This document shows, in pieces, positions 5,918-39,316 of a stretch of DNA of 44,820 nt. Every line of letters starts with the position of its first letter. Within the stretch, counting starts at the first letter, position 1. The notes under the pieces were generated by a model that was given only the letters and a program-made list of their open reading frames with translations, had not been told where the DNA came from and made no database searches. Source of the DNA: Escherichia phage SM_S22; sequence record PP627283.1. One strand, 5' to 3'. The position numbers and the translations under genes were made by a program.

Positions 5918-6622
5918 ATGAAACTTACTAAAGCAGAATATGACGCGTTGCCGGAAGGTATGAAGGCGCTTTTTGTTGCCGATGGCGACGGGTATAAATC
6001 AACGTTCATGACCGCGGAAGAAGTACAAGCGGAAATCAAGGGTCTGAAAGACAACAACGCGAAGCTGGTGAGCGAGAAGAAAGCAGAAGCCGAACGCCGC
6101 GCCGAAGCGGAGCGCCTTGCGAAAGAGAAAGAGGAAGCCGCCGCGCGCAAAAATGGCGACCTCGAAGCGATCGACAAGTCCTGGAAAGATAAGTTTGCGA
6201 AATACGAAGCAGACACATCGGGAAAAATCGAAGCCTACCGCAAGCAGATCCACGATCTAACCATCGGCAGTGCTGCCAAAGACCTGGCGTCGAAACTGTT
6301 CGGTAAGAATGCGGGAATCATGCAACGTCACGTTATGGACCGCCTCACTCTGGAAGACGGCGAAGACGGCAGCTTGAAAGTGCGTGTCTTGCAGGATGGA
6401 AAACCGTCCGCGCTGACTATGGAAGAGCTTGAAAAAGAGTTCCGTAATAACGCCGATTTTGCATCCGTCCTGGCTGGCACGCCAGCAGGTGGCGCGCCTA
6501 GCAAACCGACGCAGGTTGTCGAAGATGTGAAGTCGAAAATCACTATGGGCCACAGCTTCGGTATCACTGACCTTACGAAACAGGCCGGTGAAATCATCGC
6601 TAAGATGGGCGACGACGAGTAA
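5918..6622 (+). CDS. scaffolding protein (putative)
   Basis: 234 aa from ATG 5918 with RBS AGGGGGA; helical, charged, EAERRAEAERLAKEKEEAAAR region; directly upstream of major capsid gene. Confidence 0.55.
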   Translation: MKLTKAEYDALPEGMKALFVADGDGYKSTFMTAEEVQAEIKGLKDNNAKLVSEKKAEAERRAEAERLAKEKEEAAARKNGDLEAIDKSWKDKFAKYEADTSGKIEAYRKQIHDLTIGSAAKDLASKLFGKNAGIMQRHVMDRLTLEDGEDGSLKVRVLQDGKPSALTMEELEKEFRNNADFASVLAGTPAGGAPSKPTQVVEDVKSKITMGHSFGITDLTKQAGEIIAKMGDDE

Positions 6623-6627
6623 GCAGA

Positions 6628-6652
6628 TTGCCCGCGAAAGCGGGCAATTTTG
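6628..6652 (+). terminator. intrinsic terminator
   Basis: TTGCCCGC-GAAA-GCGGGCAA followed by TTTTG. Confidence 0.5.
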
Positions 6653-6719
6653 CGAGCGCGTAAATCTAAGGTAACATTAACGTCACTGGGCGAATGCTCA
6701 CAACTCAAAGGATTTCGAT

Positions 6720-7820
6720 ATGTCTTTAACAGTGTTCCAGCGTAAACTCGTTACCGCGGTTACGCAAATGATCCCCGACAACCTGAACGTATTCAACGCT
6801 GCCGCCAATGGCGCTGTTGTTCTCGGTACTGGTGAAGTGCTGAAGGATGTTGTAGAAAAAATGTCCGTAGGCTTGATCGCCAACCTTGTTACCGACCGTA
6901 ACGCCTACGCCCCTGTCGGTACTCCGGCAACCGCTAAAGTGCTGGCGCGTATGCTGACCAACTCGGTTAACCTGTCCGCGAAAGTGGGTCCGGTGGCAAT
7001 CACTAAGGCTATGATGGCTAAGATCGAAACCAACGTTAACAGCGTTGCGGCTGAGATTGCGGCACAGGCCACGCAAGCGATTATGCTGCATTACCTAAAA
7101 GCGGGTATCGGTGCGGGTAAAGCGGCGATCGAGAGCAACAACAACGCGGTATACACCCAACCGGCGCGCGTTGATGGCGTTGGCGGTCGTACCTTCCCGA
7201 CCCTGGCTGACTTCCCGCTGGCGGCTTCTAAGTTCGGCGATCAGGCGTCTTTGATTAAGTCCTGGTTTATGGACGGCGTTACCTGGGCAAACTTCATTGC
7301 ATACCAGGCGCTCCCTTCCGCTGAACAGGTATTCGCGATTGGCGATCTTCAGGTAATGGGCGATGGCCTGGGCCGTCGTTTCATTATCTCCGATGCCGCT
7401 GCCGATGCTATGGGCGCGGGTACAATGCTGGGCCTGGTCCCTGGCGCGGTTGCAGTTACCACCAACGGCCTCGATATGCTGGCGCAGGAAAAAGGCGGTA
7501 ACGAGAACATCGAACGCTGGTGGCAGGGCGAGTTCGACTTCAACGTGGCTGTTAAAGGCTACCGTCTGAAGGCGTCCGCTCGCACACCGATCGAAGGTGT
7601 GCGCTCGTTCAAACTGGACGACATCACCACTAAGGACAACTGGGAGCTGGACCAGGGCCAGGTAGACAACGCACCGGCAACCGTTCAGGATGTTGGCGCG
7701 GTGGGTGATGGCGATACTAAAGGCCGTCGTAAGACCCAGGCCGCGCAGGCAGTGCCTACCCGTCACATCAAGGAAACCGCTGGCGTACTGGTTAAGCTGA
7801 CGGCGACCACAGCGTCTTAA
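6720..7820 (+). CDS. major capsid protein (putative)
   Basis: 366 aa after scaffold gene, followed by strong terminator; assignment by synteny and size. Confidence 0.6.
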   Translation: MSLTVFQRKLVTAVTQMIPDNLNVFNAAANGAVVLGTGEVLKDVVEKMSVGLIANLVTDRNAYAPVGTPATAKVLARMLTNSVNLSAKVGPVAITKAMMAKIETNVNSVAAEIAAQATQAIMLHYLKAGIGAGKAAIESNNNAVYTQPARVDGVGGRTFPTLADFPLAASKFGDQASLIKSWFMDGVTWANFIAYQALPSAEQVFAIGDLQVMGDGLGRRFIISDAAADAMGAGTMLGLVPGAVAVTTNGLDMLAQEKGGNENIERWWQGEFDFNVAVKGYRLKASARTPIEGVRSFKLDDITTKDNWELDQGQVDNAPATVQDVGAVGDGDTKGRRKTQAAQAVPTRHIKETAGVLVKLTATTAS

Positions 7821-24779: not shown

Positions 24780-25250
24780 CTATTGGTTGCAAGTGAATTT
24801 TGCAACGTTTATCGCGTAAATTTTCGGGACCAAATCACCACACGCCCGACGAATTGCCGCGATGTTCTTCTCGCAATCTTCAATGATGACCAGTTCCGAC
24901 ACGTCCGCATAGCAGACCATTTTGAACACGGCGCACGCCTTAAACTCAGGCGGCGGGGTGTCGTCCTGCATGTGGCGCATAAACAACCGGCCTACCGGGA
25001 AGACCTCCAATTGCCTGGCGGTGGTGTCCCAGCATTCTCGCTGCCGGTTGGTCAGATACGCGATCTCGAAGCCTTGCTCTTTATACATGCTCAACAGCGG
25101 CAGCATATCCATGTTAAGGTCTTCGCGTACGTGCGCTTTGTGCCACTTCGCCCAAAATGTTGATTTGGTTTTTATCCCCGGCACCAGGTCGGCACGCGCA
25201 TCACTTGACCCGTTAATAACGCCATCCAAATCGCAAATCAGTAATTTCAT
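24780..25250 (-). CDS. HAD-superfamily phosphatase (nucleotidase / PNK-phosphatase-like)
   Basis: 156 aa; HAD motif I LICDLDGVI at N-terminus. Confidence 0.5.
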   Translation of the reverse strand: MKLLICDLDGVINGSSDARADLVPGIKTKSTFWAKWHKAHVREDLNMDMLPLLSMYKEQGFEIAYLTNRQRECWDTTARQLEVFPVGRLFMRHMQDDTPPPEFKACAVFKMVCYADVSELVIIEDCEKNIAAIRRACGDLVPKIYAINVAKFTCNQ

Positions 25251-25471
25251 TTCAATTCCTCAATCAGATTTTCACGAACAATACGGGCGGAAAACGTGCC
25301 ACACACAAGATGGCAGCGGGCAGTCATTACAAGCCAGCCGGTAAGGTCCAGGCCGAGCAATTGCTCCGGGCGGCTGACCCGCCGCACTTTGTTCTCCCTC
25401 GGGTTAATTTGGTAGCGTTTAACAATTTCGTCCACGACGCGCGGACTGCGATCAACGACTAAGATATTCAA
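25247..25471 (-). CDS. hypothetical protein
   Basis: 74 aa, overlaps neighbours. Confidence 0.3.
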   Translation of the reverse strand: MNILVVDRSPRVVDEIVKRYQINPRENKVRRVSRPEQLLGLDLTGWLVMTARCHLVCGTFSARIVRENLIEELK

Positions 25472-32848: not shown

Positions 32849-33628
32849 TTAACGGCGGCGACGTTTGCGCGGTGCTTCGTCTTCGTCGTCTTCGTCCTCA
32901 TCTTCGTCATCGCGGGACTTGCGACGTTTGCGAGGTTTTTCATCTTCCTCATCGTCGTCGTCATCGCGGCGCTTGGATTTCTTGGACTTGCGCGGCTTGT
33001 CATCCTCGTCATCATCACGACGTTTTGACTTCTTAGCCTTACGCGGGCTTTCGTCTTCGTCGTCGTTGTCCAGGTCTTCGTCGGAACAAGAAGACCCGCC
33101 ACCTCCGAAGGCTTCGCCGTCTTCACGGAAGCGTAAACCCAGCAAGCCAGCACCGAGTCCCTTGCCGTTGGTGTTGTTCCACGCCCAAATATCCAGTGAC
33201 ACGTTGCAATAACAACCGGAATAGATTTCCTGGCCTTCGATCTCGTCGCCGTCGATAGTCAGACCCTGCTCGGTCTGCTTCTCGCCCAGTGACGTTTGAA
33301 TGTTTGGCTGCTTGAACGATTTGGCGTTGATGTACAACATGCCTTCGAATTCTTCGGTTACTTCGTCGCGCTCGTCACCGTCGCGAACTGCGCATTCCTT
33401 AGAATCCTGGGCGTAGTGGCGGTCCATCCACTTATCGGCATTCTTCTCGGATTTCAGCTTATCGGTGAGCACTGCGCGCGCTGCCGCTTCCACTTTGTCC
33501 ACCTGCGGATCTTCTTTATCCAGAAGAATCACGGCACGGTATGCCGGTTTTTGTCCATCCTGTTTAGGGGTATCACGTTCCCAAATTTTCAGGAAACATA
33601 CGCGCACATTTTTCAGGTTGACTTTAGC
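32849..33628 (-). CDS. ssDNA-binding protein (DUF2815-like) with charged repetitive C-terminal tail
   Basis: About 259 aa from MAKVNLKNVRV (RBS GAGGAA); C-terminus has three tandem ~17-aa D/E-block plus K/R-block repeats. Confidence 0.45.
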   Translation of the reverse strand, partial: AKVNLKNVRVCFLKIWERDTPKQDGQKPAYRAVILLDKEDPQVDKVEAAARAVLTDKLKSEKNADKWMDRHYAQDSKECAVRDGDERDEVTEEFEGMLYINAKSFKQPNIQTSLGEKQTEQGLTIDGDEIEGQEIYSGCYCNVSLDIWAWNNTNGKGLGAGLLGLRFREDGEAFGGGGSSCSDEDLDNDDEDESPRKAKKSKRRDDDEDDKPRKSKKSKRRDDDDDEEDEKPRKRRKSRDDEDEDEDDEDEAPRKRRRR

Positions 33629-33721
33629 CATTTTCCAATTCCTCATTTTCACATGTATCGGGGTTATTGGAAGCCACCCCGTTCGGCTTGGTTGCTAATC
33701 TACTTGGTTGCGCTTAAGCGG

Positions 33722-33964
33722 TCAAGCATTTTCATTAAAAAGATTTCTGGTCACGTAGTTGGTGGCGTTCTCGATCCAGCTTAGCGGCGGTCGGTCGATG
33801 TTCTTCTCCACCCACCCGACGGCAGCGTCACTATACCCGTCATCCAGCCAGCGAGTCGGGTGGCGAAACATCCACGCCACCATTAACACGCCTTGCACGC
33901 AATGCAGGATAAAGCCCAGCGCGCCGAGCAAAAACATCAATAAGATTGCAAATACTTTATTCAT
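33722..33964 (-). CDS. small membrane protein
   Basis: 80 aa; hydrophobic N-terminal segments. Confidence 0.35.
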   Translation of the reverse strand: MNKVFAILLMFLLGALGFILHCVQGVLMVAWMFRHPTRWLDDGYSDAAVGWVEKNIDRPPLSWIENATNYVTRNLFNENA

Positions 33965-35387
33965 TGCTTAAGTCCTCGTCAGTGGCCTCTGACCACGCAG
34001 GGCGCGGGTCGTCGATTGGTGCTAATACCGGCTTTGCCGGTGCGCGCGTGATTTTATCACACAGCTTCGCCCATACTTTCGGTTTTTCGTCCTTCAGTAC
34101 CTTCTCGGCATCCGTAGGGCTGAGCAATGTTTCTTTGTACATCACATCGCGCTTGATCCGGGCCTTCGTGAAGATTTCAATAACTTCGCTCTCGTCCGCC
34201 CACTTACGGATCCCTTCCTTACCGGCAACCATCTTGAGGCCCAGCGATTCGCCATCGCCCGCCATTACCGCTTTGAATACCGCGGACTCGATAGCCTTGA
34301 TGTGCTGGCGCATTGCGTCAAGACCTTCATATGCCTTGCGCAGTTCCGCGGCGGTCATAGCGCCTGGGGCCGCTTCTTTCTTGCCACGCTTCGCACGTCG
34401 TGCCGCTTTGCGGGCTTCGCGGGCCATATTGCGGTCGTGATTGGCGCATTCTTCCTCTGTCGCAATACTTACGTCGTCGCCCAGGTCTTCGTCTGTTGCC
34501 GTTGGTGGGGTCATCGTGTCGATTGCAGCCTTAGCGCGGGCGCTACACTGATCCGCAAATCTGCACCACTGACACGCATCAACGCTCGGTCGGAAGTCGG
34601 CACGGGTGAGTCCCTTTTTGCCGCGGTCGTACGCTTCCAGGGCGGCGATAGCACGCTTGGACGCAAACTTCGCGAATATCTCCAGGGCTTCTACCGAAAT
34701 ATCCCACTCCGACGCCCCGCCGCAATACGGCTGGAAGATAACCAGGCGCACGGTCGTGATGTCGTACATGGATTGCAGCTTGCGCAGCAGGCCGAGCGCA
34801 TACAGCATAAGCTGTTTGTTTTCTTTCGCTTCTACCTTATGCCGCCCCGTCTTCAGGTCGCCAACAATCAGCATGTACGTGCCGTCGGTCTTCTTCATGA
34901 CCATGACCATATCCGCAGTGCCGAACGTCTTAACCCGGTTGCCGTCGATCTCGAAGCCAGAGTGTAGGACGCGGGTGAGATCGGCGCGCATCTCAAGCTG
35001 AACAAACTCCGCCACTTCGAGGAGCGGTCGCCAGTGGTCTATGTATGCGTCGCACTGTTTCACCATGTCGTCGTTTACCAGTACGCCGCCTTTCGGCGCT
35101 TTCGGGTGTGCCTTTACCGGTCCCTTGCCTTCGTTCTCGACGTAACACCCTTTATACGTCTTTGCGGTTATCAGCTTTTCACCGGCGATAATGCGGTTTA
35201 GCACGACTTCAGATACGGTGTGCATACTCGTACCGTTAATCGCGGCTTGCCCGGATTCGTTTGGGATGTCTTTTTCCACCACCAGGGCGGCAGGGCAACC
35301 CATCCATTTTTTAGCACCGGATGGCCCGAGTAATGAGTGTTCCGTATTGCTACCGGATTGCGTTTTACGTTTTGGTTTAATCGCCAT
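33957..35387 (-). CDS. PD-(D/E)XK nuclease, Cas4-like (DUF2800-like)
   Basis: 476 aa; Cys cluster CQWCRFADQC near C-terminal third; adjacent to DUF2815-like and PolA genes. Confidence 0.5.
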   Translation of the reverse strand: MAIKPKRKTQSGSNTEHSLLGPSGAKKWMGCPAALVVEKDIPNESGQAAINGTSMHTVSEVVLNRIIAGEKLITAKTYKGCYVENEGKGPVKAHPKAPKGGVLVNDDMVKQCDAYIDHWRPLLEVAEFVQLEMRADLTRVLHSGFEIDGNRVKTFGTADMVMVMKKTDGTYMLIVGDLKTGRHKVEAKENKQLMLYALGLLRKLQSMYDITTVRLVIFQPYCGGASEWDISVEALEIFAKFASKRAIAALEAYDRGKKGLTRADFRPSVDACQWCRFADQCSARAKAAIDTMTPPTATDEDLGDDVSIATEEECANHDRNMAREARKAARRAKRGKKEAAPGAMTAAELRKAYEGLDAMRQHIKAIESAVFKAVMAGDGESLGLKMVAGKEGIRKWADESEVIEIFTKARIKRDVMYKETLLSPTDAEKVLKDEKPKVWAKLCDKITRAPAKPVLAPIDDPRPAWSEATDEDLSNE

Positions 35388-35566
35388 TATTCCACCCGTG
35401 TAAACTGGACAATTACATATTTCACATTTGCCAGGCCCGCTTTTTCGACTCGGCGCTTAACTTCATTTTGCGCGTCCACAAAGCAATTGCTTGCGTTGGT
35501 GTTTTCAACAATAAAAGAAGTGTGATCGTTTAATTCGTGGCATGTTGCCAGCACGAAGAATTTCAT
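35387..35566 (-). CDS. small hypothetical protein (59 aa)
   Basis: TAATG coupling at both ends; below ORF-track cutoff. Confidence 0.3.
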   Translation of the reverse strand: MKFFVLATCHELNDHTSFIVENTNASNCFVDAQNEVKRRVEKAGLANVKYVIVQFTRVE

Positions 35567-35817
35567 TATTTTGTCTCCCAGCGGTCAATCGTTCTTGCTT
35601 CGGATGCAACTGCAAAGCGAACATATTCCAGATTGGAATCCGCCCAAATATAAAAGTCGGGGTTAGTAAAGGTGGTGCGCTTAATTTGCGCGGGGGTATT
35701 GCGGCGTTTGTCTATTACGGCAACGCGTGACTGAAAATTGCCGATGCGTTCGAATAGCCAATAATAAGGGCGCTGGTCGCGGGAGTCCACCGCCTCGATT
35801 AGCGTGAAGCGTGCCAT
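35566..35817 (-). CDS. hypothetical protein
   Basis: 83 aa. Confidence 0.35.
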   Translation of the reverse strand: MARFTLIEAVDSRDQRPYYWLFERIGNFQSRVAVIDKRRNTPAQIKRTTFTNPDFYIWADSNLEYVRFAVASEARTIDRWETK

Positions 35818-35865
35818 TGTCTCGTCCTCTAAAAAGAGGCCCGCAGATTAGCGGGCCGGAATATA

Positions 35866-36309
35866 TTAATCTTCCAGTTCGAAATAGGTTTCGACGATTT
35901 CTTTTAAATCTTTGTGGAAGTCTTCGACGTCGTCATCTTCCAGCTTGGCGATTGATTTGATCTCGAACGCTTCCAGCAGGTCGTCGAATTCGTCGTTGGC
36001 GTCGTCGTCATCACCACCGGCGATAATCGCGGCATACTGTTTGATTTCGTCGCGCATCTCTGCCAGCGGATCGGCATCTTTCTTACCTTTGCCTTTCGCC
36101 GTGGCTTTTTTGCCTTTCGCCGGTGCTTTTTTGGTTTTCGCCGGTGCTTCGTCTTCAGCGTCGTCATCTTCTACGACTTCTTTTTTCGCCTTAGATGGCT
36201 TTTTATCTTCCTGCTTACCAACGGCAGCGCCAACGGTTTCATAATGCTTAGCGATGGTTTCCAGTGCTACTACGCCGCGAGTAATCAGGTTTACGATTTG
36301 TTCAAACAT
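35866..36309 (-). CDS. highly charged early protein (Lys-rich block between acidic blocks)
   Basis: 147 aa; RBS GGAGAT; first gene of minus-strand early operon. Confidence 0.5.
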   Translation of the reverse strand: MFEQIVNLITRGVVALETIAKHYETVGAAVGKQEDKKPSKAKKEVVEDDDAEDEAPAKTKKAPAKGKKATAKGKGKKDADPLAEMRDEIKQYAAIIAGGDDDDANDEFDDLLEAFEIKSIAKLEDDDVEDFHKDLKEIVETYFELED

Positions 36310-36509
36310 GTTTTATATCTCCGATTGGTTAAGTTTAGGTGTCGACCATTAACTTCGTCGGTGGCCTTAACATATTGCCAGGTTACGCGTTCTCCCGTTC
36401 GGGTAGTGGACCTGGTTATATAATCACGGTTGGGAATCCTGACACTTCGATCCGGCCCCTGCGTTGCCCCTCTCCAGTTTGCGTCCTGCATCCTGTCGAC
36501 GAGGTGAAT

Positions 36510-36545
36510 ATTAGATTGGTTGCATGAGGGAGTCAACAACTAATT
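36510..36545 (-). promoter_or_regulatory. early sigma70-like promoter
   Basis: Minus-strand read TTGACT-17-TAATAT with TGCAACCAAT in the spacer. Confidence 0.5.
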
Positions 36546-36547
36546 TC

Positions 36548-36640
36548 AAAAAAAAAGCGCCGAAGCAAAATGCGACGGCGCTAACCAATAAGAGACAATG
36601 AGACGGGAGTATTATTACACGCGTGCGCGCCCGTTTCAAT
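36548..36640 (-). ncRNA. promoter-proximal terminated transcript (candidate sRNA or attenuator leader, ~55 nt)
   Basis: Minus-strand TTGAAA(rc of 36634-36639)-16-TAATAA(rc of 36612-36617), then hairpin 36556-36582 with nine-T run. Confidence 0.3.
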
Positions 36641-36711: not shown

Positions 36712-37041
36712 ATGAATGTAAACGACGCAATCGAAATGTTAACGACGACTGTTAGCAGTGAAACAAGCCGGTCATGGGCTTATACCGATGCCGTTGGGGC
36801 GGTGCTATTTGAGGTCGAGCGCCTGCGCAGTGTAGAAAAAGAATTACGCGCCAGGCTGGAATTGCTCAACGGTACGGCGGCGAGCAAGCTACAAAAACAC
36901 AATGAAGAAATGGAAGAATACAAAAAGCAGGTTATCCGTTTGCGCGCCGAGGGCAAATCCTGGGCGATGATTGCCGAGTTGACCGGAATTAATCAGAGCA
37001 CAGTGCGCTCTTGGGTACGCAATAACAAAACTTCTAAGTAA
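36712..37041 (+). CDS. HTH DNA-binding protein (putative regulator)
   Basis: 109 aa; C-terminal HTH-like SWAMIAELTGINQSTVRSWV. Confidence 0.5.
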   Translation: MNVNDAIEMLTTTVSSETSRSWAYTDAVGAVLFEVERLRSVEKELRARLELLNGTAASKLQKHNEEMEEYKKQVIRLRAEGKSWAMIAELTGINQSTVRSWVRNNKTSK

Positions 37042-37051
37042 GGCCACGGCA

Positions 37052-39316
37052 ATGAGCTTAATTAAATTCGCTGTAACAAGACCCGCTAAAAAAGGCGAAA
37101 AAGCCAGGGCGGAAAACTTCCAGATGACGACCGATGAGTTTTTCGAATTTATCAAAGATGCGAAAGAAATCTCCTCGGTGCATATCAACAAGACGGAAGA
37201 TAAAGCCGAGTATGCGCGCCGCAAGCGTAAGGCCGACGGCATCGTGGCGTATACCAGTGACGGATTGCGTCGTAAGACCAGTGCGGTGGACCGCTCGATC
37301 CTGTTCTTTGATATCGACCGCACCGACACTCGCACCTTGCGCCGCTGCCGTAAGGCTTTCATCGATGCGGGTCTGGAACACGTATTCCACACCACAACCG
37401 GCGACCGCCACCCGCTGAAAGGAGGCACGCGTTGCGCTCGTTTCCTGGTGCTCACCGATAAGCCTGTACCTGCTGAAGACCTGGGCCGCGTCCAGTATGC
37501 ACTATTACACCAACTGGGTCTGTCAGATGTGGACTTCGACGATTGCACGAAAGACACAAACCGCCTGATGTACCTGCCACACCAGCAGTCTGTTATTAAG
37601 TGCCACTACGGAAAACGTGCCCGAGTCCGTCGTCTGCTTCGCCTGGCGGATAAGTTGGGCGTGGAGAAGGAGGAAGTACGCCGCGAACTAACCCAGGGCG
37701 ATGACGCAGTGGCAGACGGCATTCTGGACTGGTGCTTCCAGGCAGGATTCGAGGAGTTATCTTCCGGTCGCGGTTATGAAGTGCCGTGCCCGAACGAACA
37801 TCTGCACAGCGGCGAAGGGTCGACGGCTATCATGGTCAAGGATGGCGAGATCCGTTTCAAGTGTATGCACACCGGCAACGAGTGTTGCTCGGAACTGAAT
37901 AGACACCAGCACCTGGCGCTGCGTCTTATCGGGATCCCTGACCACCTGAACGTCGAGCCACACAACATGTCCCGTAAGCAAATCGCCGCCATCCTTCCGG
38001 GGCTGGACGACGAGGAAGTCGAATCCTTATATGAACATATTGTTGATGCGGTTGGCGACGGCGAAGAATACGGCGTGTGCACCGATGCGGATCTGGATAA
38101 CGAGCCGGTTGCGCTGTTCAGCAAGCACGACCCGATCATCGAGGGGTTGATTAACTTCAAATCGACCTGGTACATGGCGGGTGAGTCGAATATTGGTAAG
38201 TCTTTCTACGTGCTGGGTCAAATGGGCGCTGTTGCCGCCGGTATTCCGTTCGGCGGTGCGAAGGTCGTCCAGTCTCATTGCTTCTATTTCGATGCGGAAG
38301 GTGGTGAAGCCTCCAACCAGCGTAAAGAAGCATTGCAGATTAAATACGAGCACGACCTGGACAAGCTGCACATTATCGATCTGCAGTCACGCGGCTGGGA
38401 TATCACCAGCAAATCCGGCTTGCGCGAAGTTATCAGCTTTATCAACCGCACCGCTAACGGCGAACCGGTTGGCCTGGTGGCGTTCGACTCACTCAACCAG
38501 ACTGTTGCGCTGCGGTCCGCCGATGCTAAACCGTTCGACGAGAACAACGCCAGCGATATGGGTGAAGTGGTCAAAGCGCTGAAAGCCATTGCGGAAAATA
38601 CAGGTGGCAGTGCGGGCGTCATCCACCACCCGGCGAAGGGTGCCAACGGCAGCAGAACCCCACGCGGATCCGGCGCGCTGCATGGTGCTGTCGATTCTGC
38701 GTTCTTCCTGGAGCAACCAGACGACAACCAGCCCGGACAATTGAACCTGTATCATGAGAAGGCACGTAACGGCATCAAGCAAGCGCCGCGCGGATTCGTC
38801 CTGCTCAAGTGCAAGGTGAAGGTGGATCTCCGCAAGTCAGAAGCGTTCGAGGCGCACCAGTCCACCAGCACCGGGCCAGACTTCGGTGACGTGGTTGCCG
38901 GTTGGGACGTCAAGCCGATTGCATCCACGCCTCGCGACGAGACTCTGTACCTCGTACCGGTCGCCCTGGCACCGTTCGCCATCGAACAGGCGAAGGCAGC
39001 GGGCAAGGCCGCAGTTAAGGAGGAGAACGCCGCAGGCCCGCGCAATGAAAAAGAGAAAGTGCTTTATGCAGCGCTGGAAAAACTGATGGAAGATAACCCG
39101 GACCATACCGGATTCAGCAAATCGGCAATTGTCCGCCAGGCTGGACTTGCGAAAGGTGGCACGTCGACAAAGGCAATCGACGATATGGTCGAGCGCGGCG
39201 TACTAGGTTTTTACACAGATCCACACACCGGGGCCATCTATGGGTCGTCGAATATCGTCATTAAAACGAATATACCCATCACGCTTTCGGCGACCGATGA
39301 GGATTTAAAAGATTAA
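37052..39316 (+). CDS. bifunctional primase-helicase (AEP/PrimPol-like N-terminus, P-loop helicase C-terminus)
   Basis: 754 aa; AEP-like LFFDIDRTD; Cys/His zinc module; Walker A GESNIGKS and Walker-B-like LVAFDSLNQ. Confidence 0.6.
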   Translation: MSLIKFAVTRPAKKGEKARAENFQMTTDEFFEFIKDAKEISSVHINKTEDKAEYARRKRKADGIVAYTSDGLRRKTSAVDRSILFFDIDRTDTRTLRRCRKAFIDAGLEHVFHTTTGDRHPLKGGTRCARFLVLTDKPVPAEDLGRVQYALLHQLGLSDVDFDDCTKDTNRLMYLPHQQSVIKCHYGKRARVRRLLRLADKLGVEKEEVRRELTQGDDAVADGILDWCFQAGFEELSSGRGYEVPCPNEHLHSGEGSTAIMVKDGEIRFKCMHTGNECCSELNRHQHLALRLIGIPDHLNVEPHNMSRKQIAAILPGLDDEEVESLYEHIVDAVGDGEEYGVCTDADLDNEPVALFSKHDPIIEGLINFKSTWYMAGESNIGKSFYVLGQMGAVAAGIPFGGAKVVQSHCFYFDAEGGEASNQRKEALQIKYEHDLDKLHIIDLQSRGWDITSKSGLREVISFINRTANGEPVGLVAFDSLNQTVALRSADAKPFDENNASDMGEVVKALKAIAENTGGSAGVIHHPAKGANGSRTPRGSGALHGAVDSAFFLEQPDDNQPGQLNLYHEKARNGIKQAPRGFVLLKCKVKVDLRKSEAFEAHQSTSTGPDFGDVVAGWDVKPIASTPRDETLYLVPVALAPFAIEQAKAAGKAAVKEENAAGPRNEKEKVLYAALEKLMEDNPDHTGFSKSAIVRQAGLAKGGTSTKAIDDMVERGVLGFYTDPHTGAIYGSSNIVIKTNIPITLSATDEDLKD

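Follow-up and report, generated by a model that had tools for sequence, protein, structure and literature searches.

What is the task of a small and extremely charged protein encoded at the promoter-proximal end of a phage replication operon? The question is raised by a gene for a protein of 147 amino acids (aa) in Escherichia phage SM_S22, a Dhillonvirus; its complete genome of 44,820 bp (sequence record PP627283.1) is the whole stretch of DNA that is referred to below as the window. An initial annotation, made from the letters alone, had described the protein as highly charged, left its strand unstated and its function unassigned, and suspected a first early gene for anti-restriction or host takeover. 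The open reading frame (ORF) is indeed present, on the minus strand and with ATG as its start codon, and its family carries a catalogue name only. As for its role, we tentatively favour an accessory protein of the replication module rather than a host-takeover or anti-restriction protein.

Three modules of a charged protein

Alignment of 120 close and 39 distant relatives divides the protein, which has 24 K/R and 40 D/E residues and a net charge of -16, into three modules. They are listed here with the gene itself, the structural limits being taken from AlphaFold2 (AF2) models and their predicted local distance difference test scores (pLDDT).

35866-36309, minus strand: gene for the 147-aa charged protein (ORF; stop codon at 35866-35868), of the PHROG 3127 / VOG1545 family
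36232-36309, minus strand: N-terminal amphipathic helix, aa 1-26, MFEQIVNLITRGVVALETIAKHYETV (also given as MFEQIVNLITRGVVALETIAKHY); AF2 helix at aa 2-26, pLDDT about 65
36070-36231, minus strand: disordered polyampholyte linker, aa 27-80; AF2 pLDDT below 50 for aa 26-73
36088-36149, minus strand: 21-bp tandem repeat (Tandem Repeats Finder; 3.0 copies, 90% matches), encoding the PAKxKKA heptads of the Lys-rich block
35869-36069, minus strand: acidic C-terminal domain (C-domain), aa 81-147; AF2 three-helix bundle with helices at aa 81-98, 102-114 and 125-143

Structure prediction, which the initial annotation had proposed as a check, gave a confidently predicted acidic three-helix bundle together with a linker modelled as disordered and a predicted N-terminal helix. 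With a 36-sequence alignment, pLDDT reaches 87-92 across aa 81-140 of the C-domain; an earlier AF2 model from a 22-sequence alignment was of low confidence (pLDDT 50) and unusable. Within the genus, where the identity and linker-length figures come from 100 genus-level homologues, the N helix has a mean identity of 98.7% and the C-domain one of 96.6%. The N helix is the most conserved segment of the family, and its motif is almost unchanged in gp4 of Achromobacter phage phiAxp-2; the C-domain is conserved in all 39 cluster representatives, and just before it lies a basic patch that is invariant in 22 closer homologues (K76; K77 at 90% or more). The linker varies from 28 to 92 aa through modular insertions and deletions, and the total length in the family runs from 115 to 179 aa.

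The linker begins with the basic KKPSKAKK, continues with the acidic EVVEDDDAEDE and an AP dipeptide, and ends with the basic Lys/Ala/Pro run AKTKKAPAKGKKATAKGKGKK. Across strains the basic modules KKPSKAKK and PAKxKKAPAKGK alternate with the acidic EVVEDDDxEDE in a strain-dependent copy number, and a repeat_region is annotated within the homologue of phage bob. In aa 30-79, 54% of the residues are charged, and the charge pattern exceeds chance, the segregation of charges in the linker standing 4.1 standard deviations (sd) above that in 500 shuffles of the same residues, none of which came as high. The C-domain is on its part strongly acidic, residues 80-147 (68 residues) having a net charge of -20. 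The blocks pointed out by the initial annotation are all found, namely EDDDAEDE at aa 47-54, KTKKAPAKGKKATAKGKGKK at aa 58-77 and DDDDANDEFDD at aa 100-110, and the two acidic blocks do flank the Lys-rich one. They are however not equivalent: because a bundle is predicted on one side and a disordered linker on the other, EDDDAEDE belongs with the Lys block to the hypervariable tether, whereas DDDDANDEFDD forms a loop and helix start of the conserved folded domain.

The gene is real, since the protein has 254 homologues at E<=1e-3 in which every length difference preserves the frame, and since its homologue EE09_56 was seen by mass spectrometry in infected cells. By sequence search the hypothetical protein of SM_S22 is 100% identical to the 147-aa protein, and the gene region is 90-94% identical to about 175 Dhillonvirus records. 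A Shine-Dalgarno sequence GGAG (36319-36322, minus strand), found by direct reading 9 nucleotides (nt) 5' of the ATG, is kept in four Dhillonviruses. Many GenBank records annotate the homologue at least 60 residues longer (207-247 aa). These longer N-terminal forms were rejected, the upstream ORF being in frame only in some genomes; the extension is an artefact, because a 2-nt indel before the ATG toggles the upstream frame and because the distant homologues all begin at the M[LF][DE][KQ] helix.

The family is already catalogued, though uncharacterised. The PHROG 3127 profile matches the whole protein (E 4.7e-48), and the phage bob homologue is tagged VOG1545, as is gp65 of the Jerseyvirus 'pink'. 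This gp65, whose C-domain shows 37% identity and whose architecture has the same three parts, bears a name that goes back to Salmonella phage MB78, '13.88 kDa late protein'. A C-domain profile search of 1.84 billion representatives returned only 39 clusters, mostly small proteins (about 120-210 aa) of the same three-part plan, with a few fragments and one weak match of 2,539 aa. Three family members carry two C-domain copies behind a single N helix, and owing to this duplication the C-domain is taken as an independent binding module. Scans of the protein and 36 family members against Pfam, NCBIfam and PADLOC gave only low-complexity or sub-threshold matches; Pfam DUF6669, for instance, reached 14.1 bits against a cut-off of 27, below its gathering threshold, and was touched by just 2 of the 36 members. 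The PDB profile search by sequence gave nothing meaningful, no characterised family was similar by sequence or fold in the libraries and the PDB, and the searchable literature holds no functional study or experiment for the Dhillonvirus protein, MB78 or the '13.88 kDa' family. What is new here is the three-module anatomy and the remote relatives at a fixed position in a widespread replication cassette; new are also the repeat grammar and charge covariation shared with the tail of the SSB (the protein that binds single-stranded DNA), and the evidence against the anti-restriction reading.

A fixed place in the replication module

The 147-aa gene heads a minus-strand operon in which it is followed by a hairpin/terminator, an 83-aa ORF, a 59-aa ORF, a DUF2800 PD-(D/E)XK nuclease, an 80-aa ORF, an SSB of the gp2.5/Enc34 type, a small ORF and PolA, the operon being divergent from a helix-turn-helix protein and a primase-helicase. 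Of these, the nuclease is the gene that stays syntenic with the 147-aa family across phage families:

33957-35387, minus strand: DUF2800 PD-(D/E)XK (Cas4-like) nuclease (Pfam DUF2800, E 1.4e-66)

The same arrangement was found at seven distinct distant loci (L003, which duplicates L025, and L019-L024), where primase-helicase, nuclease, SSB and polymerase are 43-64% identical to those of the window. In all seven, no gene was detected ahead of the homologue in the operon, which runs on through nuclease, SSB and PolA and is divergent from the primase-helicase, and at these loci the small 83-aa and 59-aa ORFs show no detectable conservation. The operon context is equal in Jerseyvirus and in Klebsiella phage VLCpiS11a.

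Remote relatives extend this position to other phages. In a comparison by hhalign, the family matches a set made of phiAxp-2 gp4, an ORF of Pectobacterium phage MA12 and bbp35 of Bordetella phage BPP-1 with a probability of 92.4% (E 5e-7, 117 columns). A profile of these three proteins matches gp11 of Xylella phage Xfas53 at 6e-10, and Streptococcus phage phiD12_42 at only 1e-3 among nine candidate sequences, which is a weak link. The genes for Xfas53 gp11 and phiD12_42 lie directly 5' of a DUF2800 nuclease. Both profile-profile similarity and the same gene position were found for this superfamily, the position being common to five further phage families, and the remote relatives are assigned to PHROGs 7721, 408 and 18562, all without an assigned function. 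As the position is fixed at the distant loci and remote homologues hold it in other phage families, we regard the gene as a core gene of the replication module and not as a variable accessory gene.

Two observations may be set beside this. In MA12 (L030, MN692199.1), the remote homologue is an unannotated ORF of 133 aa at 6476-6877, 5' of the DUF2800 gene; it matches PHROG 7721 (E 6e-22) in about 1.8 kb that the GenBank record leaves unannotated, and a search seeded with it returned only 4 relatives. The 83-aa ORF of the window (35566-35817, minus strand; PHROG 4965 / VOG1544) has a 31%-identical homologue directly 3' of Jerseyvirus gp65, and since the two genes are adjacent in Jerseyvirus too, the 147-aa and 83-aa genes form a conserved pair in two phage groups.

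The product is moreover abundant during infection. At 25 min, proteomics of cells infected with the Dhillonvirus vB_EcoS-EE09 picked up no more than four phage proteins, among them coding sequences CDS56 (EE09_56) and CDS61 (PMC10673088). We verified CDS56 as a homologue of the 147-aa protein; CDS61 corresponds to the SSB gene by position and length alone. CDS56 is missing from the 24 proteins of the cell-free lysates, in which 16 of the 17 annotated structural proteins were recovered (PMC10673088). Because it was found in the infected cells and not in those lysates, the protein is regarded as abundant and non-structural.

Charge covariation with the SSB tail and the competing explanations

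A candidate partner for such a protein is the C-terminal tail of the SSB:

32852-33100, minus strand (gene 32849-33652): C-terminal tail of the gp2.5/Enc34-type SSB, the proposed partner (from translation)

This tail of 83 residues consists of four acidic-xP-basic units (an acidic run, [A/S/K]P and a basic run) and ends with RKRRRR. It reads SDEDLDNDDEDE-SP-RKAKKSKRR-DDDEDD-KP-RKSKKSKRR-DDDDDEEDE-KP-RKRRKSR-DDEDEDEDDEDE-AP-RKRRRR. The linker of the 147-aa protein is built from the same unit, with a strain-variable copy number in both proteins. Charge segregation in the SSB tail is 10 sd over shuffles, its length ranges from 47 to 84 aa within the genus, and all relatives examined in this clade have such polyampholyte tails. 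The tail of the Enc34 SSB is purely acidic (PMC5686142). Over nine lineages, the net charge of the C-domain falls as the K+R count of the SSB tail rises (Spearman rho -0.86, with a nominal p of 0.003 that is not corrected for phylogeny):

Dhillonvirus (window): C-domain net charge -20; SSB-tail K+R 28
Klebsiella VLCpiS11a: C-domain net charge -20; SSB-tail K+R 21
metagenomic relative (L003): C-domain net charge -14; SSB-tail K+R 16
Jerseyvirus 'pink': C-domain net charge -12; SSB-tail K+R 6
Pectobacterium MA12: C-domain net charge -10; SSB-tail K+R 1
Achromobacter phiAxp-2: C-domain net charge -5; SSB-tail K+R 0
Xylella Xfas53: C-domain net charge -3; SSB-tail K+R 0
Streptococcus phiD12: C-domain net charge -2; SSB-tail K+R 2
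Bordetella BPP-1: C-domain net charge 0; SSB-tail K+R 0

In our reading, the protein became so highly charged in one lineage only, as an elaboration that came about along with the basic blocks in the tail of the SSB.

In the role that we favour as the most economical reading, the protein would be an abundant, non-enzymatic accessory of the replication/recombination module made up of the DUF2800 nuclease, the gp2.5-type SSB, PolA and the primase-helicase. Its N helix would probably dock onto a partner or drive self-association, and the disordered tether of alternating acidic and Lys/Ala/Pro blocks would be free in its length. The effect would be an electrostatic coupling between proteins inside the replisome or recombination machinery: the acidic bundle and the acidic blocks could find their counterpart in the basic blocks of the polyampholyte tail on the SSB, and for the Lys-rich block the counterpart could be acidic tails or DNA. 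Such coupling might tune how the SSB and its partners engage DNA. A specific pairing of the protein with the SSB tail is, taken as a claim of its own, rather doubtful. Less probable again is a bolder version, in which the protein and the SSB tail would be a co-evolved pair of complementary, charge-patterned disordered chains, and multivalency through the N helix would build an electrostatic condensate or scaffold on the phage DNA whose material properties are tuned by copy number; if true, this pair would be the bacterial-virus counterpart of nucleolar acidic/basic repeat proteins.

Several points weigh against the accessory role. What is shown is the architecture with its conservation, the synteny, the presence in infected cells together with the absence from virion lysates, and the charge covariation; each binding partner, and any effect on replication, we infer. 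The covariation may amount to only one or two evolutionary events, because the lineages are not independent and the four strongly charged ones are one clade. Within the genus, the length of the protein is weakly correlated with that of the SSB tail (rho 0.50, p 0.05, n=16), and shared repeat slippage could be the source of the length variation in both. Synteny with replication genes is also compatible with a host target, as lambda gam lies in the red operon, and an abundant protein with a very acidic folded domain is also what would be expected of a stoichiometric DNA mimic.

A motif shared by the replication proteins themselves was noticed in this connection. The ORFs of the genome, taken in all six frames, contain [ST]DEDL five times, and four of the five occurrences are in the tails of replication proteins:

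about 39290-39316, plus strand: C-terminal end of the primase-helicase, ATDEDLKD*
33957-33986, minus strand: C-terminal end of the nuclease, ATDEDLSNE*
about 34420-34450, minus strand: internal to the nuclease, ATDEDLGDD
about 33040-33070, minus strand: start of the SSB tail, CSDEDLDND

In distant relatives it is kept at the nuclease C-terminal end and in the SSB tail. By analogy with the acidic C-terminal tails of T7 gp2.5 and gp4, it is probably a shared docking motif.

A serious rival, although we consider it unlikely, is a host-directed decoy, in which the acidic bundle would imitate DNA and so draw off some DNA-binding protein of the host that is not a type I restriction enzyme. The target could be RecBCD, the protein then protecting linear or rolling-circle DNA as an analogue of lambda Gam or T7 gp5.9, or else H-NS or HU. 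A net charge of -20 over 68 residues with conserved acidic positions, an abundance that fits a stoichiometric binder, a promoter-proximal gene, and an operon shared with an exonuclease and an SSB/annealase in parallel to lambda gam-bet-exo are all in keeping with this. Yet no solved DNA mimic resembles the protein in sequence or in fold, and the same-position homologues of phiAxp-2, BPP-1, Xfas53 and phiD12 are nearly neutral (net charge 0 to -5), so that acidity is not the ancestral, defining property of the family. RecBCD is moreover low-copy, which makes a high abundance unnecessary. Sensitivity to P2 Old is a readout of RecBCD inhibition, and the BASEL Dhillonviruses appear insensitive to it in the available plating columns, with an efficiency of plating (EOP) of about 0.1-1.2, as weak evidence that takes the three filled columns of those rows as Fun/Z, Old and Tin.

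An improbable alternative is a binder like histone H1, whose Lys/Ala/Pro block would coat or organise the phage DNA or the host nucleoid under autoinhibition by the acidic parts. The PAKxKKA heptads do resemble tails of the H1/HC2 type, 1 of 36 family members touches Pfam HC2 (E 0.01, far below threshold), and the invariant basic patch before the C-domain would suit such a binder. The protein is however net acidic instead of net basic (-16), with a basic block of just 20 aa, and no other part is as dispensable as this block: in natural variants of 115-124 aa, the basic residues are down to about 8-13, and the remote homologues have Thr/Ala-rich linkers in its place.

The leading idea of the initial annotation, a protein like Ocr or ArdA that blocks type I restriction-modification, has become very improbable, with composition and promoter-proximal position as the only points in its favour. 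Neither in sequence nor in fold did the Pfam, PDB profile and fold searches relate the protein to Ocr, ArdA, lambda Gam, T7 gp5.9 or other solved DNA mimics. The check proposed for it, protection against a type I system, can be read from published plating: in one replicate row of the BASEL data, phage KarlBarth (Bas17), with two EcoCFT_I sites, has an EOP of 0.0016 on this type IB system (PMC8594841). Bas17 carries a homologue that is 84% identical to the 147-aa protein, and a homologue-bearing Dhillonvirus is thus restricted about 600-fold by a type I system, which is evidence from the phage and not from the protein itself. Furthermore, the BASEL entries for five Dhillonviruses give 0-1 EcoKI sites (PMC8594841), and the genome of SM_S22 has 0 EcoKI sites (AACN6GTGC) against 5.9 expected and 0 EcoAI sites (GAGN7GTCA) against 6.2 expected, with EcoR124I sites not depleted (16 found, 11 expected). 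The missing EcoKI and EcoAI sites are selective avoidance of type I sites and not inhibition. Site avoidance and the measured restriction of Bas17 argue together against an Ocr-like inhibitor, and high charge with a promoter-proximal position is insufficient to annotate a gene as an anti-restriction DNA mimic.

Least credible of all is a virion, scaffold or internal protein, for which there are the name 'prohead core protein' in one GenBank record and the 'late protein' names of the MB78 and Jerseyvirus homologues, and against which stand the absence of the EE09 homologue from the 24 proteins of the lysates and a gene located in a replication operon, far from the structural genes.

Control region, significance and likeness to known systems

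The expectation that this is the first gene after a promoter holds in so far as no other ORF stands before it on the 3' side of a divergent control region with two conserved sigma-70-like promoters; early expression is plausible, and the experimental data on timing consist of the finding of the homologue at 25 min and of 'late protein' as a historical name. The signals around the gene are as follows.

36611-36639, minus strand: promoter-like P1, TTGAAA-17-AATAAT with TG before the second hexamer (consensus scan 10/12; conserved)
36548-36582, minus strand: hairpin AGCGCCG...CGGCGCT followed by T9, between P1 and P2, terminator- or attenuator-like (conserved, with loop changes only)
36508-36536, minus strand: promoter-like P2, TTGACT-17-TAATAT (by consensus match alone; identical in four aligned Dhillonviruses), with a predicted leader of about 190 nt
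35828-35857, minus strand: GC-rich hairpin (7 G-C pairs) with a T-run, terminator-like, 8 nt past the stop codon

Of the 7 distinct distant loci, 6 have a hairpin at the position of the one after the gene, though the sequence of its stem is another, and promoters upstream with a hairpin/terminator after the stop codon are consistent with a higher expression than that of the downstream genes. From P1 to the ATG, a stretch of about 330 nt (36310-36640, minus strand) is nearly identical in four Dhillonviruses, one of which (L006) has unrelated adjoining sequence; a regulatory RNA, an attenuator or a DNA element related to an origin are all conceivable for it. The 190-nt leader had no Rfam match and a folding z-score of 0.27. 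A transcript that starts at P1 and stops at the terminator immediately following would be only about 55 nt long.

Two further genes of the window touch on annotation and defence. The divergent neighbour of 109 aa (36712-37041, plus strand) is labelled 'DNA recombination nuclease inhibitor gamma', 'transposase' or 'resolvase' in its relatives. What Pfam supports is a helix-turn-helix at the C-terminal end and no more (HTH_23, HTH_28, Sigma70_r4_2), and the names Gam and transposase have the look of annotation errors passed on from record to record. The ORF at 25250-25471 (minus strand) is 61% identical to EE09_4 (E 2e-28), as a homologue of the gene at the position of Ksap1, between methyltransferase and phosphatase genes. 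Ksap1 is a 74-aa Dhillonvirus protein that activates the Klebsiella defence protein Avs2. The known Dhillonvirus defence triggers (Ksap1, SSB, PolA and portal) were considered as the identity of the 147-aa protein and discarded, all being different genes.

The module of DUF2800 nuclease, gp2.5-type SSB and PolA is among the most widespread replication cassettes of tailed phages, the nuclease alone being matched in 1,135 records of the phage collection, and if the small upstream protein is a conserved functional partner, this module has an unrecognised component. Dhillonviruses are also standard models (BASEL Bas14-18, SECphi4/6/18). Retron-Eco8 and Borvo are known to be triggered by their SSB and polymerase, and if an abundant protein modulates the SSB, it could therefore alter the sensing of infection by these defences. 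In addition, paired acidic/basic repeats of variable copy number in two proteins of one operon provide a tractable system for charge-patterned disorder in a bacterial virus.

Among known systems, the acidic DNA mimics T7 Ocr (gp0.3), ArdA, T7 gp5.9, lambda Gam and T4 Arn are likewise small, abundant, very acidic and all-helical proteins, typically encoded near early promoters. The 147-aa protein, for which no similarity to them in sequence or structure was found, differs from them by its basic block and its conserved hydrophobic N helix, and phages that carry it are still restricted by a type I system. Lambda Red-beta has as its C-terminal domain a three-helix bundle to which lambda Exo and SSB bind, and this is an analogy only: its match ranks 43rd among generic bundles with an hhalign probability of 0.1%, and neither it nor a bundle like that of lambda Orf showed specific sequence-profile or fold similarity. 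Nopp140, the N-terminus of nucleolin and the K-tract in the acidic tail of the Bacillus RNA polymerase delta subunit are blocky polyampholytes as well, with basic runs (Lys/Ala/Pro) between acidic runs; they are not homologous and work in other cellular contexts.

The true homologues are those of PHROG 3127 / VOG1545 in MB78 and Jerseyvirus, with the same architecture and with gp65 followed by the homologue of the 83-aa neighbour; among the members of PHROG 3127, the Dhillonvirus proteins are the most extreme in charge and the most variable in their linker. The members of PHROGs 7721, 408 and 18562 (phiAxp-2 gp4, BPP-1 bbp35, Xfas53 gp11 and phiD12_42) have in common with them the operon position and the plan of N helix, disordered linker and C-terminal helical domain, but their linkers are rich in Thr, Ala and Lys without acidic blocks and their C-domains are near neutral. 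A parallel to the proposed accessory role is the T7-type replisome, where the acidic tails of gp2.5 and gp4 bind the polymerase and the SSB's own DNA groove, and where SSB, helicase and polymerase are coupled electrostatically through tails as would be the case here. This phage has an SSB that belongs to the gp2.5/Enc34 type (PMC5686142), and it shares the tail motif [ST]DEDL with the nuclease and the primase-helicase. What would distinguish the present system from T7 is that an acidic module is placed on a separate protein, and that the SSB tail is a polyampholyte with basic blocks, unlike the purely acidic tail of Enc34.

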